This document shows positions 5,135 through 58,688 of a stretch of DNA of 64,000 bases, in pieces. The translations under genes were made by a program, and so were the position numbers. The notes beneath the pieces were generated by a model that saw only the letters and a program-made list of their open reading frames with translations, was not told the DNA's origin and ran no database searches. The stretch's first letter is position 1. Every line of letters starts with the position of its first letter. This DNA is from Azonexus sp. (GTDB lineage Bacteria > Pseudomonadota > Gammaproteobacteria > Burkholderiales > Rhodocyclaceae): contig JAKLLH010000005.1 in NCBI GenBank assembly GCA_023150235.1, positions 72,830 to 136,829 of the forward strand, given 5' to 3'.

Positions 5135-5230
5135 TATCGCGCTGCCGTTTGTCCAGCAAAACCAGGGTTGGCGCGTGTCGATCAAGGCGTGGTCCGGTAC
5201 AAGGCCAGCGCTGACCGCCGGCCAGAAACC

Positions 5231-5260
5231 GCCGTTTTCACGGTCGACCGTGGATGCGGC
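5231..5260. repeat. CACGGTCGACCGTG palindrome family member
   Basis: Perfect 14-bp core at 5239-5252, next to the stop codon of the 5261-5968 gene. Confidence 0.7.
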
Positions 5261-26921: not shown

Positions 26922-26974
26922 ACCTCCCGCCCGGCAAGGTCGAGCGCCCGTCTCCACGCTGGTGAAAGGCAGGC

Positions 26975-27018
26975 AAAATTGGGCTTTTTCACGGTCGACC
27001 GTAAAAAAGCCCAATTTT
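26975..27018. repeat. 44-bp near-perfect palindrome, CACGGTCGACCGTG family
   Basis: AAAATTGGGCTTTTTCACGGTC|GACCGTAAAAAAGCCCAATTTT between convergent genes. Confidence 0.75.
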
Positions 27019-37394: not shown

Positions 37395-37563
37395 GGATGC
37401 GATTCTGCCACAGGGGGCGCGGTGGCTTGGCGGAGGAAAAATACGGTCGACGGCAATAAATGGCGATTTTCGGCGTCGACCGTGGCAGCGGCCGGGATGC
37501 CAGCAGATTTGCCGGTACCGCAGTGCAAGCAAACAACTTGCCAAAAGAGTACTAATCCATGTA

Positions 37564-47655: not shown

Positions 47656-48137
47656 TTCGGTTCGTTTTCCTGGAGCAGGGCTTCGGCGCGGCGGATTTCC
47701 TCGGACGAGAGCGGCTTTTCATCGGCCAGTCGCAGGCTGCGCCGGCGCAGATAGGCGCGCAGTGCGAGCATCCCGCCGATCAGTAGCAGCAGCGGCCCGC
47801 CCCAGAGCAGCAGGGTGCTGGCCTTGAGCGGTGGCCGGTAGAGCACGAAATCGCCGTAGCGGGTAACCATGAAGTCGATGATTTCGCCGTTGCTCTTGCC
47901 ATCCTTGATCATGCCGCGGATCTCGCGACGCAGATCCTGCGCCAGCTCGGCGTTGGAGTCGGCGATGTTCTGATTCTGGCAGACCAGACAGCGCAACTCG
48001 GCCGACAATTCCTGCAGGCGTTTTTCGGCGACCGGGTCGGCCGCCAGCGCGGCTTCGGTCCCGGCATCGGCGATGCTCACGGTCGACGTGGAAAAAAGGC
48101 AAAAAAGCAGCGCCAGGGCGCTCAGGGTGCGTTTCAT
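47652..48137 (-). CDS. ccmH: Cytochrome c biogenesis protein CcmH
   Basis: LRCLVCQNQ, RYGDFVLYRPP. Confidence 0.95.
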   Translation of the reverse strand: MKRTLSALALLFCLFSTSTVSIADAGTEAALAADPVAEKRLQELSAELRCLVCQNQNIADSNAELAQDLRREIRGMIKDGKSNGEIIDFMVTRYGDFVLYRPPLKASTLLLWGGPLLLLIGGMLALRAYLRRRSLRLADEKPLSSEEIRRAEALLQENEPK

Positions 48138-48718
48138 CGATTCAGCTCCGCGAGCAAGGGCATGATCTTCTTGGCCAGCACCTCGGGAGTGATCGGTCCG
48201 GTGTGCTTCATGCGGATGACGCCGGCCTTGTCGATGACGTAGGTTTCCGGCACGCCGTAGACGCCGTAGTCGATACCGACGCGGCCGTCGAGGTCCATCA
48301 CCGTCAGCCGGTACGGGTCGCCATGTTCGGACAGCCATTTGCCGGCACGCTGCAACGCCAGCTTCTTCTCCTCGTCGGCCGGCATCTTGTTCATGTCGAA
48401 GCCGCCGTCGCCGCGAACTTCCTTGTAATTGAGGCCGATGAGCGGTACATCGACCTTCTTCGAGAATTCAACCAGCACCGGGTGTTCCTGACGGCAGGAG
48501 ACGCACCACGAAGCCCAGACGTTGAGCAGCCAGACCTTGCCTCGGAAATCCTCGGGACCGACGCTCTTTTCCGGTTCTGCCAGTACCGCCAGCTTGAAAA
48601 CCGGGGCCGGTTTGCCGACCAGCGGCGAGGGCACGTCGCGCGGGTTCAGGTTGAGCCCGACGGCGAGCAGGGCGACGAGGGCGGCAAAGGCGCCGATGAT
48701 CCAGTAGTAACGATTCAT
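48134..48718 (-). CDS. ccmG: Thiol:disulfide interchange protein CcmG/DsbE
   Basis: NVWASWCVSCRQEH, GVYGVPET. Confidence 0.95.
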   Translation of the reverse strand: MNRYYWIIGAFAALVALLAVGLNLNPRDVPSPLVGKPAPVFKLAVLAEPEKSVGPEDFRGKVWLLNVWASWCVSCRQEHPVLVEFSKKVDVPLIGLNYKEVRGDGGFDMNKMPADEEKKLALQRAGKWLSEHGDPYRLTVMDLDGRVGIDYGVYGVPETYVIDKAGVIRMKHTGPITPEVLAKKIMPLLAELNR

Positions 48719-48879
48719 CGTAAGACTAACTCCGGTTTGAAACCCCGCCCTTCAGGGCGGAGGGAGCCGACCCCGGCCTGAAGGCCGGGGTTTCAGGCGA
48801 CCGTTTCGGGAGGGGATGCAAACCCCTTCCAAAACATGTTTGACCGACAGGCATGAATGCCTGTCGCTAATTTCTTGCT
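48719..48879 (+). mobile_element. IS200/IS605-like palindromic element, copy 3 (161 bp)
   Basis: After TTCAT 48714-48718; removing it restores a ccmF/ccmG ATGA overlap; it supplies the current ccmF stop. Confidence 0.85.
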
Positions 48880-50864
48880 GCTTGTTGCACTCCAGCGGTG
48901 GCGGCAGCGGCACGCCGGGATTTAACGCGATAGCGGCGGTCGAGCATCGCCAGCAGGCCGCCCAGCGACATCAGCAGGCAGCCACCCCAGATCCAGTCGA
49001 CAAAGGGTTTGTAGTAGACGCGCACCGCCCATTCGCCTTCCGGCTTGTCGCGGTCGATCGGCTCGCCAAGCGAGACATAGACGTCGCGCAGGAGGCCGGC
49101 ATCGATTGCCGCCTCGGTCATCGGCATCGCCGACGAATGGTAGTTGCGCTTTTCCGGATTCATTTTGCGGAGAAAACGGTTGTCGACCGTGAGATCGAAG
49201 TTGCCCTGCATCGCCACGTAGTTCGGTCCCTCGACCTGACGCACGCCGTTGAAGCGGAAGCTGTAGCCGGCGACGGAAACCTGATCGCCGACCGCCATCT
49301 TGATGTCCTTCTCCTGCTCGAAGCTCATCACCATGGTCACGCCGACGACAAAAACGGCAACGCCAATGTGTGCCAGATGCATGCCGATGAAGCCGCGCGG
49401 CTGTGCCAATACAGCCGTCAGCAGGCTGCGTCCACCACGGGTATGGTGCACCCGTTCGGCAAAATTCTGCAGTGCGGTGACCACGACCCAGGCGGCAAAG
49501 AACAGGCCGAGCGCGGTCATCGCCTTCCATTGGCCATAGACCAGCGGCAGGGCGACCGCGACGATGGCACCGGCACCCAGCGCCCAGCGGGTGAGGCGCA
49601 GCAATTCGGGCAGCGAGGCTTCCTTCCAGCGGGCGAAGGGACCGATCCCGACCAGGAACAGGATCGGTGTCATCACCGGCACGAAGACCGCGTTGAAGTA
49701 GGGTGGGCCGACCGAGATCTTGCCGACGCCGAGCGCGTCGATCAGCAGCGGGTAAAGTGTGCCGAGCAGCACGGTGGCGCAAGCGACGACCAGCAGCACG
49801 TTGTTGGCCAACAGCATCGATTCGCGCGAGATCAGTCCGAAGCGGCCGCCCAGGCCAACCTTGGGCGCGCGCCAGGCGAAGAGCGTCAGTGACAGGCCGA
49901 TCACCGCGACCAGGAAGATCAGGATGAAGACGCCGCGGCGCGGGTCGGTGGCGAAGGCGTGCACCGAGGTCAGCACGCCGGAACGAACCAGGAAGGTGCC
50001 GAGCAGGGACAGCGAGAACGCCGAGATCGCCAGCAATACCGTCCAGTTCTTGAAGCTGCCGCGCTTTTCGGTCACCGCCAGCGAATGCATCAGCGCGGTA
50101 CCGATCAGCCAGGGCATGAATGAGGCGTTTTCGACCGGATCCCAGAACCACCAGCCGCCCCAGCCGAGTTCGTAATAAGCCCACCACGAGCCCATTGCGA
50201 TTCCCAGGGTCAGGAAGACCCAGGCGGCCGTGGTCCAGGGCCGTGACCAGCGCGCCCAGGCGGCATCAAGCTGGCCGGAAAGCAGCGCGGCGACGGCAAA
50301 GGCATAGGCCACCGAGAAACCGACATAGCCCATGTAGAGCAGCGGCGGGTGGATCACCAGACCGGGATCCTGCAACAGCGGATTCAGGTCGCGACCTTCG
50401 GTGGCGCCGGGCAGCAGGCGCTCGAAGGGATTGGACGTAAACAGGATGAAGAGCAGGAAGCCGAAGGCGACCAGGCCGAGCGTGCCGAGTACGCGGGCGA
50501 CCATCGTGTCGGGCAATTGGCGCGAGAACTGCGCGACACCGAAAGCCCACCAGGTCAGCATCAGGATCCACAGCAACAGCGAGCCCTCGTGGCCGCCCCA
50601 GACGCCGGCGACGCGGTATTCGATCGGCAGCAGCGAATTCGAGTGCTGCGCGACATAGACCACCGAGAAATCGTTGACCACGAAAGCCTGGGTCAGGCAA
50701 GCGAACGAGAAAGTGACCAGCAGGGCCAGGGCGTTGGCGCCGGGCCGCGCCAGCGCGATCCAGGCCTGCTGGTTGCGATGCGCGCCGAGCAGGCTCAGGC
50801 TGCCGAAAACGACGGCAACCAGCGCCGCGAGGATGAGGGCGAAATGGCCAAGTTCAGGAATCAT
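48867..50864 (-). CDS. ccmF: Heme lyase CcmF
   Basis: WGGHEGSLLLW, HPPLLY, WGGWWFWDPVENAS, SVHAFA. Confidence 0.97.
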   Translation of the reverse strand: MIPELGHFALILAALVAVVFGSLSLLGAHRNQQAWIALARPGANALALLVTFSFACLTQAFVVNDFSVVYVAQHSNSLLPIEYRVAGVWGGHEGSLLLWILMLTWWAFGVAQFSRQLPDTMVARVLGTLGLVAFGFLLFILFTSNPFERLLPGATEGRDLNPLLQDPGLVIHPPLLYMGYVGFSVAYAFAVAALLSGQLDAAWARWSRPWTTAAWVFLTLGIAMGSWWAYYELGWGGWWFWDPVENASFMPWLIGTALMHSLAVTEKRGSFKNWTVLLAISAFSLSLLGTFLVRSGVLTSVHAFATDPRRGVFILIFLVAVIGLSLTLFAWRAPKVGLGGRFGLISRESMLLANNVLLVVACATVLLGTLYPLLIDALGVGKISVGPPYFNAVFVPVMTPILFLVGIGPFARWKEASLPELLRLTRWALGAGAIVAVALPLVYGQWKAMTALGLFFAAWVVVTALQNFAERVHHTRGGRSLLTAVLAQPRGFIGMHLAHIGVAVFVVGVTMVMSFEQEKDIKMAVGDQVSVAGYSFRFNGVRQVEGPNYVAMQGNFDLTVDNRFLRKMNPEKRNYHSSAMPMTEAAIDAGLLRDVYVSLGEPIDRDKPEGEWAVRVYYKPFVDWIWGGCLLMSLGGLLAMLDRRYRVKSRRAAAATAGVQQAARN

Positions 50865-57289: not shown

Positions 57290-57937
57290 TCAGCGGCTTT
57301 CGACCGGGGCCGGACGCTGGGCACCGGCCGGGGCCAGGTCGAGGCGCTTGATGTCGGCATCGGGCAGGACTTCGAGGACGTTGACCACTTTCCTCACCCC
57401 GTCGGTGGTGCGGGCAACCTGGACGGCCACCTTGCCTTCGTAGGCGCTGACGATGCCCATCAGGTAGGTATGGCCGTTCTCGGTAACGACCTTGACGTGG
57501 TTGGCCGAAATCTTCTGCGAATCGACCAGCCGGGCCTTGACCTTGGAGGTCACGAAGCTGTCGCGGCTGCGCACGCTGAGGCTGGACGGGGCGGCGACGA
57601 CCAGTTCGTTATACACCTCGCGCACGCCCTGCAAGCCGCGGGCGGCAGCTTCGATTTCGCTGCGCGCCTCGTCGCCGGGAACTTCGCCGGTCAGCAGCAA
57701 ACGCCGGTTGTAGGCGGTGACATTGACGTGCGCGGCGTCGCGGAACTTGGCCGGAATCGCGTCGGCGGCCTTCCATTCCAGGCTTTCGTCGTCGGCCTGG
57801 GTGCCGGTGCTGCGGCGGTCGTGGGCGCTCATCACCCCGGCGGCGGTGCCGGCGACGATGGCCGGGAAACAGCCCTGCAACAGCGGCAGGGTCAACGCCA
57901 GCGCGGTCGCGGCGAGGGTCAGGCGGGACTTGTTCAT
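57290..57937 (-). CDS. Dual-BON domain lipoprotein (DolP/YraP-like)
   Basis: LQGC lipobox, DRRSTG, LLLTGEV, V.V.TENG..YLMG. Confidence 0.9.
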   Translation of the reverse strand: MNKSRLTLAATALALTLPLLQGCFPAIVAGTAAGVMSAHDRRSTGTQADDESLEWKAADAIPAKFRDAAHVNVTAYNRRLLLTGEVPGDEARSEIEAAARGLQGVREVYNELVVAAPSSLSVRSRDSFVTSKVKARLVDSQKISANHVKVVTENGHTYLMGIVSAYEGKVAVQVARTTDGVRKVVNVLEVLPDADIKRLDLAPAGAQRPAPVESR

Positions 57938-58098
57938 CGTAAGACTAACTCCGGTTTGAAACCCCGCCCTTCAGGGCGGTGGGAGCCGACCCCGGCCTGA
58001 AGGCCGGGGTTTCAGGCGACCGTTTCGGGAGGGGATGCAAACCCCTTCCAAAACATGTTTGACCGACAGGCATGAATGCCTGTCGCTAATTTCTTGCT
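57938..58098 (+). mobile_element. IS200/IS605-like palindromic element, copy 4 (161 bp)
   Basis: After TTCAT 57933-57937; removing it restores a TAATG stop/start overlap. Confidence 0.85.
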
Positions 58099-58688
58099 TA
58101 CTCGACTCCGAGCAGCAGTGCGTCGATCCCGTCGCACAGGCAGTGGATGATCAGCAGGTGGGTTTCCTGGATGCGCGCGGTGCGCTGCGCCGGCACGCAC
58201 AGGTGGATGTCGTCGTCGCGCAGCAGTTCGCCGATCTGGCCGCCGTCGCGGCCGGTCAGCGCGATCACCCGCATCTCGTGTTCGTGGGCGGCGTTGATCG
58301 CCTCGATCACGTTGCCGGAATTGCCCGAGGTCGAGATCGCCAGCAGCACGTCGCCGGCGTGGCCGAGGGCGCGCACCTGGCGGGCGAAGATCTGGCTGAA
58401 GGCGTAGTCGTTGGCGACCGCGGTCAGGATCGATGTGTCGGTGGTCAGCGCAATCGCCGCCAGTTCGCCGCGCTCGGCCTCGAAGCGGCCGACCAGTTCG
58501 GCCGCGAAGTGCTGCGCGTCGGCGGCTGAACCGCCGTTACCGCAAGCGAGGATCTTGCCGCCGTTGAGCAGGCTTTGGGTCAGGGTCTCGATGGCGGCGG
58601 CGACCGGCGCGGCGAGCAGGTCGACGGCTTCGAGCTTGGTACGGGCGCTATCCTCGAAATTCTCGGCAACGCGGGCGATCAGATCCAT
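58098..58688 (-). CDS. gmhA: Phosphoheptose isomerase GmhA/DiaA family (SIS domain)
   Basis: CGNGGSAADAQH, AISTSGNS, RIQETH. Confidence 0.9.
   Translation of the reverse strand: MDLIARVAENFEDSARTKLEAVDLLAAPVAAAIETLTQSLLNGGKILACGNGGSAADAQHFAAELVGRFEAERGELAAIALTTDTSILTAVANDYAFSQIFARQVRALGHAGDVLLAISTSGNSGNVIEAINAAHEHEMRVIALTGRDGGQIGELLRDDDIHLCVPAQRTARIQETHLLIIHCLCDGIDALLLGVE

Follow-up and report, generated by a model that had tools for sequence, protein, structure and literature searches.

A gene-less 161-nt element inserted into the ancestral ccmF/ccmG overlap of an Azonexus species

The ccmF/ccmG junction, its empty alleles and the family of copies

A 64,000-nt stretch of Azonexus sp. (assembly GCA_023150235.1, contig JAKLLH010000005.1, positions 72,830 to 136,829; hereafter the window) carries on its minus strand a System I cytochrome c maturation (ccm) operon, in which CcmF, CcmG, CcmH and CcmI domains were found in order by Pfam, with overlapped junctions. 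The ccmF product matched CcmF_C (1.6e-130) and Cytochrom_C_asm, and the two open reading frames (ORFs) beyond ccmG matched CcmH and then the CcmI TPR domain. Between ccmF and ccmG lies a gene-less repeat of 161 nt that was inserted into the ancestral ATGA overlap of the two genes, an event observed together with its exact boundaries by comparing filled and empty alleles. The ccmG, ccmH and ccmI genes downstream of it are intact. The junction comprises the following features:

48867-50864, minus strand: ccmF ORF in its present reading, 665 aa, ending ...GVQQA-ARN followed by TAG (ORF list and Pfam)
48719-48879, minus strand: inserted gene-less element, 161 nt, AGCAAGAAATTAG...CTTACG; 48718-48878 is equally possible (1-nt ambiguity)
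48867-48878, minus strand: element-derived codons GCA AGA AAT TAG, which encode the additional CcmF tail Ala-Arg-Asn and its stop; the same tail stands on six ORFs genome-wide
48714-48718, minus strand: pre-existing target ATGAA (TTCAT on the plus strand), carrying the ccmG start codon and formerly the ccmF TGA stop; present in all empty sites
48134-48718, minus strand: ccmG (DsbE-type thioredoxin, Pfam Redoxin/AhpC-TSA), 194 aa, unaltered by the insertion; an identical protein lies beside the empty site of a metagenome scaffold (L160)

The minus-strand sequence of the junction is ...GGA GTG CAA CAA GCA GCA AGA AAT TAG CGACAGGCATTCATGCCTGTCG ... CCGGAGTTAGTCTTACG ATG AAT CGT... (ccmG), and removing exactly 48719-48879 in silico restores ...CAACAAGC|ATGAATCG. 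An earlier note on this DNA had deduced that CcmF would then end ...GVQQA* with an ATGA overlap onto ccmG. This description is exact, and the same junction occurs naturally in relatives. When the two flanks were joined and used as a query, a contiguous match was obtained in most same-genus relatives, and the uninterrupted site ...CAACAAGC|ATGAA... was found in all 18 congeneric genomes in which the junction was read, as well as in the closest other species and a conspecific metagenome scaffold. In all 18 relatives, GCA TGA closes ccmF, so that the protein ends ...A*, the TGA forms an ATGA overlap with the ccmG start codon, and CcmG starts MNRY...; a 19th congener (L003) displays the same empty junction in alignment. 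The closest other species (~90% nucleotide identity; protein cluster P0001) reads ...GGAGTGCAACAAGC|ATGAATCGTTAC... at this point and possesses a full ccmABCDEFGHI with 4-nt overlaps at six junctions (ccmB/C, C/D, D/E, F/G, G/H and H/I). The comparison of CcmF C-termini that the note had proposed is in line with these data, and neither observation that would have refuted the note was made, orthologues ending ...QQA* with the overlap and none in AARN: among the best 120 CcmF homologues, 119 tails end in A (mostly xQQA) and none in ARN. Elsewhere in the same operon, the ccmG/ccmH junction (48134-48138, minus strand, CGATGAAAC) consists of an ATGA overlap followed by A, that is, a second ATGAA target, which is unoccupied.

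The conspecific scaffold L160, which encodes an identical CcmG, matches the window at 99.0-99.6% identity over 2245 nt and holds the empty site, while contigs of two further runs (L161 and L162) are 100% identical and start inside the element, hence represent the filled allele. The two alleles differ by exactly 161 nt. Their comparison revealed no target duplication at this insertion, no flank bases being repeated except one ambiguous A; the boundary ambiguity amounts to this one base, the first base of the element and that of the target both being A. Because a 99% identical strain retains the empty site, the insertion is recent and polymorphic within the species. The opposite polarity, namely an ancestral intergenic or regulatory segment lost by the relatives, or a ccmG ATG brought in by the element, drew on the first impression that all copies end in ATGAA. 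It has a negligible probability, given 47 copies with unrelated flanks, a precise absence with ATGAA kept in every relative examined and in the 99% identical strain, and the occurrence of the element in only one of 60 other related genomes searched. Both versions were rejected, the second because the empty sites retain ATGAA.

The repeat is present in four copies in the window, one of them with a 27-nt internal deletion, and in 47 copies genome-wide at ~95-99% identity (a few being lower or partial), including variants of 138/139 and 111 nt. Read on the gene strand, nearly all copies start with AGCAAGAAATTAGCG and end with CTTACG followed by ATGAA, with unrelated sequence outside. The target adjoins 40 of the 47 copies in this genome and 78 of 86 from other genomes, the only feature of the opposite flank being the absence of T at position -1. 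Except for a few isolated matches to a hairpin or to a 12-nt motif, the element motifs are confined to the 47 copies. Besides ccmF/ccmG, four other junction copies have congeners without the element, in which the junctions are mostly overlapped; for three further copies (C1, C3-43045 and C36), no contiguous match to an empty site was recovered in congeners. Copy 4 of the window (57932-58100) has the flank GAGTA|A, where the first A of the element completes an upstream TAA stop, and the corresponding junction in three congeners is TAAATG, TGACATG or TGATG, without the element.

The element has three predicted structures:

48845-48866, minus strand: hairpin A, subterminal, 9-bp stem with a tetraloop, directly after the new stop (folds and compensatory changes)
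48809-48830, minus strand: hairpin B, GGAAGGGG...CCCCTCC (folds)
48739-48794, minus strand: composite palindrome of two inverted GC-rich hairpins (folds), where the internal deletions of the 138/139-nt and 111-nt variants are located

One hairpin lies 13 nt from one end of the element and the palindrome ~20 nt from the opposite end. Hardly any variation occurs in the termini, which share only five of 15 bases as inverted repeats, and the internal hairpins vary with compensatory changes, hairpin A displaying GC/AU in a proportion of 8:7 at one pair and CG/GC at another among family members. Rfam returned no family at gathering score in the window except tRNA; permissive matches on the element all scored well under the threshold and included neither HEARO nor IS605-orfB.

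Related copies, mostly followed by ATGAA, were retrieved from metagenome-assembled genomes (MAGs) of other Rhodocyclales/Burkholderiales (Accumulibacter sp., Zoogloeaceae, Azoarcus, Dechloromonas and MS502-56). Contigs of several MAGs (L038, L044, L045, L050, L060, L061 and others) start ~88 nt inside the element, because the repeat breaks short-read assemblies. In Betaproteobacteria bacterium MS502-56 (L048 and L065), a second element of ~350 nt shares the target-proximal module (...GGGGTTTCAACCGGAGTTAGTTTTACG|ATGAA) and differs at its other end (ATGAATGTTGTTGAAATGATGG...); it stands in tandem directly after a 161-nt-type copy, and the same start was observed behind a copy in four loci (L048, L054, L065 and L089).

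Consequences for CcmF and for ccmG expression

Every original residue of CcmF is retained, including the last Ala, the third base of its codon now coming from the element, and the gain is limited to GCA AGA AAT and the TAG, which lie within the first 13 bases of the element. The three added residues are unlikely to matter, because they extend a tail outside the CcmF_C domain, which stops at residue 643 of 665, and the sequence and length of this tail differ from one relative to another. That CcmF gains ARN and stops at an element-borne TAG, as the earlier note had stated, is seen in the sequence and recurs at five other ORFs of this genome. Its wording that the element rewrote the C-terminus goes too far, as nothing of the original protein was lost and the three additional residues fall in the variable tail. 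The predicted tryptic C-terminal peptide is AAAATAGVQQAAR for the filled allele and AAAATAGVQQA for the empty one.

The +ARN outcome is fixed by geometry. Because the target contains TGA, an ORF ended by the target TGA enters the element in the frame of the early TAG. On the gene strand, the stops of the three frames lie at offsets 10 (TAG), 84 and 125, the later two frames running 28 and 42 codons into the element. The claim that the element caps upstream ORFs thus stands for the frame set by ATGA/xxA-TGA and not for the other two. The six ARN-tailed ORFs of the genome are CcmF, a ModB-like permease and four others. Six of the 47 copies occupy overlapped stop/start junctions (four ATGA, one TAATG and one TGATG), which agrees with the proposal that insertion inside operons is tolerated, and 19 copies directly adjoin a real gene start. 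When the 6185 ATGAA sites were roughly tallied, 4 of 86 overlap-type starts were occupied vs 15 of 743 other starts (Fisher p = 0.12); ATGA-overlap sites are tolerated, not demonstrably preferred.

These regularities could suggest an evolved, operon-compatible cassette, in which a stop in the TGA frame and a Shine-Dalgarno (SD) sequence at a fixed distance were selected so that the element colonises start codons and ATGA junctions without harm to the host. Indeed, the TAG lies in exactly the frame set by ATGA/xxATGA contexts, GGAG is placed 11 nt from the target ATG, and both persist across genera and in at least 44 of the 47 copies. The TAG is in the same frame in a subfamily whose 13-nt tip differs (AGCAACTCATTAG), and the 19 genes with a copy on their start codon show no sign of being lost. 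However, the TAG belongs to the invariant terminal 13 nt, and transposition alone may account for the conservation of the termini, GGAG and TAG included, since a transposase would constrain these bases in any case. Moreover, a single frame is capped early, a stop within four codons has a chance expectation of ~11%, the enrichment of ATGA sites is not significant, and in at least one diverged copy elsewhere the tip measures 12 nt, which puts the TAG in another frame. On these data, selection for capping cannot be told apart from constraint on the element ends, and we hold a selected cassette to be unlikely.

As for ccmG, the distance from the ccmF stop to its start is -4 nt in the empty allele vs +148 nt in the filled one. 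The gene retains its own ATG, now 3' of the new ccmF stop and behind three stable hairpins. A spacing of ~20 nt nearly abolishes termination-reinitiation in tested gene pairs of E. coli and Haloferax volcanii (PMC10666635). As this process fails beyond such a distance in those pairs, we infer on good grounds that the termination-reinitiation coupling between ccmF and ccmG is lost. A candidate replacement signal is carried by the element itself:

48730-48733, minus strand: element-borne GGAG, candidate Shine-Dalgarno sequence, 11 nt before the ccmG ATG; predicted anti-SD duplex -6.1 kcal/mol

In the empty alleles, a native GGAG lies 10 nt before the ATG with an equal predicted pairing of -6.1 kcal/mol, both values being computed with a generic anti-SD sequence since the 16S 3' tail was not found in the assembly. 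From this arrangement, the element GGAG would serve as SD for ccmG. Regarding transcription, neither a sigma-70-like promoter in this region nor a terminator-like site in the ccm gene orientation was found, the sole terminator-like site being on the opposite strand; because of this lack of promoter-like or terminator-like sites in gene orientation, transcription is expected to read through the element. The opposite-strand site corresponds to hairpin A, terminator-like on the plus strand only, followed by CTAATTTCTT (48845-48876, plus strand), which scores as intrinsic-terminator-like and is antisense to ccm. Element copies between convergent genes could stop antisense transcription.

The inserted RNA is predicted to be very stable (-92.6 kcal/mol for 201 nt, z = -5.6). 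What weighs against the use of the element GGAG is that the minimum free energy (MFE) fold pairs part of the SD region with ccmG codons; the centroid fold leaves this region open, and its accessibility is uncertain because the two folds differ. A local accessibility estimate from a 90-nt truncated fold was discarded, as the cut runs through the composite palindrome. Such structures could also indicate a mildly deleterious polar insertion, in which the hairpins and the lost coupling lower CcmG, CcmH and CcmI, the GGAG works poorly, and the allele persists as it is young and low levels are tolerated. The stability of the RNA, the partial pairing of the SD region in the MFE fold, the position of hairpin A directly after the new stop and the existence of a conspecific empty allele, which implies that the insertion is not fixed, would all fit. 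Conversely, ccmG, ccmH and ccmI are intact downstream, 19 genes of the genome depend on the same arrangement, and the filled allele was recovered in two further runs. A deleterious effect hence appears possible and rather doubtful; the insertion is probably near-neutral, tolerated and not adaptive.

The element might even act as a built-in substitute for coupling. In the family consensus fold, its first 14 bases can pair with the GGAG-to-ATG stretch in a 9-pair terminal helix (including three G-U). Since a ribosome terminating at the TAG would sit on these very bases, termination would unmask the downstream ribosome-binding site and make the element a self-contained, operon-compatible spacer. 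We regard this as very improbable.

Element class and mobilisation

The element behaves like a palindrome-associated transposable element (PATE) derived from the IS200/IS605 family, without being filed as a proven member. No target duplication, a conserved pentanucleotide on one side only, and subterminal hairpins at both ends without terminal inverted repeats were all found. Furthermore, TTCAT is the documented target or transposon-adjacent motif (TAM) of ISGst5, an IS200/IS605 element (bioRxiv 10.1101/2023.03.14.532601). PATEs such as those related to ISGst1/ISGst5 of Geobacillus stearothermophilus share with the present element the lack of target duplication, a conserved T-rich pentanucleotide (the same TTCAT in the case of ISGst5), subterminal hairpins instead of terminal inverted repeats, tens of near-identical gene-less copies and a presumed mobilisation in trans. 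Unlike them, the element has no cognate TnpA, TnpB or IscB in this genome and no omega-RNA/HEARO match in Rfam, its end hairpins are dissimilar, its strand bias is weak and its host is a betaproteobacterium (Rhodocyclales).

Several points weigh against this assignment. No Y1 (HUH) transposase with matching ends was found in this genome, a draft assembly in which a copy could be missed, and no TnpB is present. The two genes encoding Y1_Tnp proteins are single-copy and unlinked to the element. The stems of the two end hairpins have different sequences, in contrast to classic IS608-type ends. The orientation of the copies relative to the local GC-skew sign is concordant in 29 and discordant in 18 cases (p = 0.14), a bias too weak to use. 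In addition, neither this genome nor 80 loci of other genomes yielded a longer element with the same ends, such as an autonomous parent would be.

Other classes were considered. A classical miniature inverted-repeat transposable element was rejected, as there is no duplication and the termini are not convincingly inverted. An IS110/IS1111-derived element was likewise rejected, the single IS110-family gene (on contig C40) having no element-like sequence around it. When located between cistrons, hairpins of the repetitive extragenic palindromic (REP) type are known to affect mRNA stability and translation upstream. The element resembles REP/BIME/REPIN systems, mobilised by RAYT proteins, in the inverted pairs of GC-rich palindromes that make up its composite palindrome, and the genome encodes two RAYT-like Y1 proteins. 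It differs in being a 161-nt unit with unique non-palindromic ends and a fixed target. The two RAYT-like Y1_Tnp genes (C35:61854-62183 and C25:69115-69450, i.e., L001 and L002) encode proteins of 237-243 aa starting MPRRPR... and are flanked neither by the element nor by the CGGTCGACCG palindrome; a REP/REPIN mobilised by RAYT was therefore rejected, the motifs of the 161-nt element being absent around both genes. The REP niche is held here by a separate palindrome family, TTTTCACGGTCGACCGTGAAAA, found at 5212-5251, 26963-27002 and 37444-37483, whose core CGGTCGACCG occurs 361 times in the genome. At several 161-nt copies, the ATGAA target stands directly beside such a palindrome.

The Correia (CREE/NEMIS) elements of Neisseria and the ERIC/IRU elements of enterobacteria are small transcribed repeats, located in operons and at gene ends, that can supply stops or expression signals and alter intercistronic mRNA structure. 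The present element is likewise a small repeat found in these positions. Correia elements are bounded by 26-bp terminal inverted repeats and duplicate a TA, and both features are missing here. In a further difference from them, the position of the present element relative to the start codon is exact to the base.

The insertion as a whole and its significance

Taken together, the most convincing account, which we consider quite probable as a whole, is that of a 161-nt non-autonomous element inserting directly on the 5' side of an ATGAA that was already present (on the other strand, 3' of TTCAT) and making no target duplication. Its transposition most likely followed an IS200/IS605-type single-strand mechanism with a transposase acting in trans, which is the weakest point of the explanation. 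The ccmF frame now ends at the element TAG, which adds ARN, and the termination-reinitiation coupling to ccmG would be lost; the latter would be initiated de novo at the element GGAG, which is predicted to be as strong as the native GGAG and is almost identically placed; and transcription would read through the element into ccmG, at near-neutral cost. Judged from the sequence, the functional reading given in the earlier note seems reasonable and partly overstated. The ccmF/ccmG case is a known kind of event and reveals no new mechanism.

Through a target comprising an ATG as well as a TGA, a small element is directed to the starts, ends and overlaps of genes. As a result, a repeated and predictable ARN tail is found on six proteins, which annotators could mistake for a conserved motif. 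The case is useful through the existence of both alleles in one species. It provides a precisely dated natural experiment, in which an ATGA overlap is set against 148 structured nt with the coding sequences otherwise intact, and the two alleles allow a direct test of the dependence of cytochrome c maturation on the translational coupling between ccmF and ccmG.

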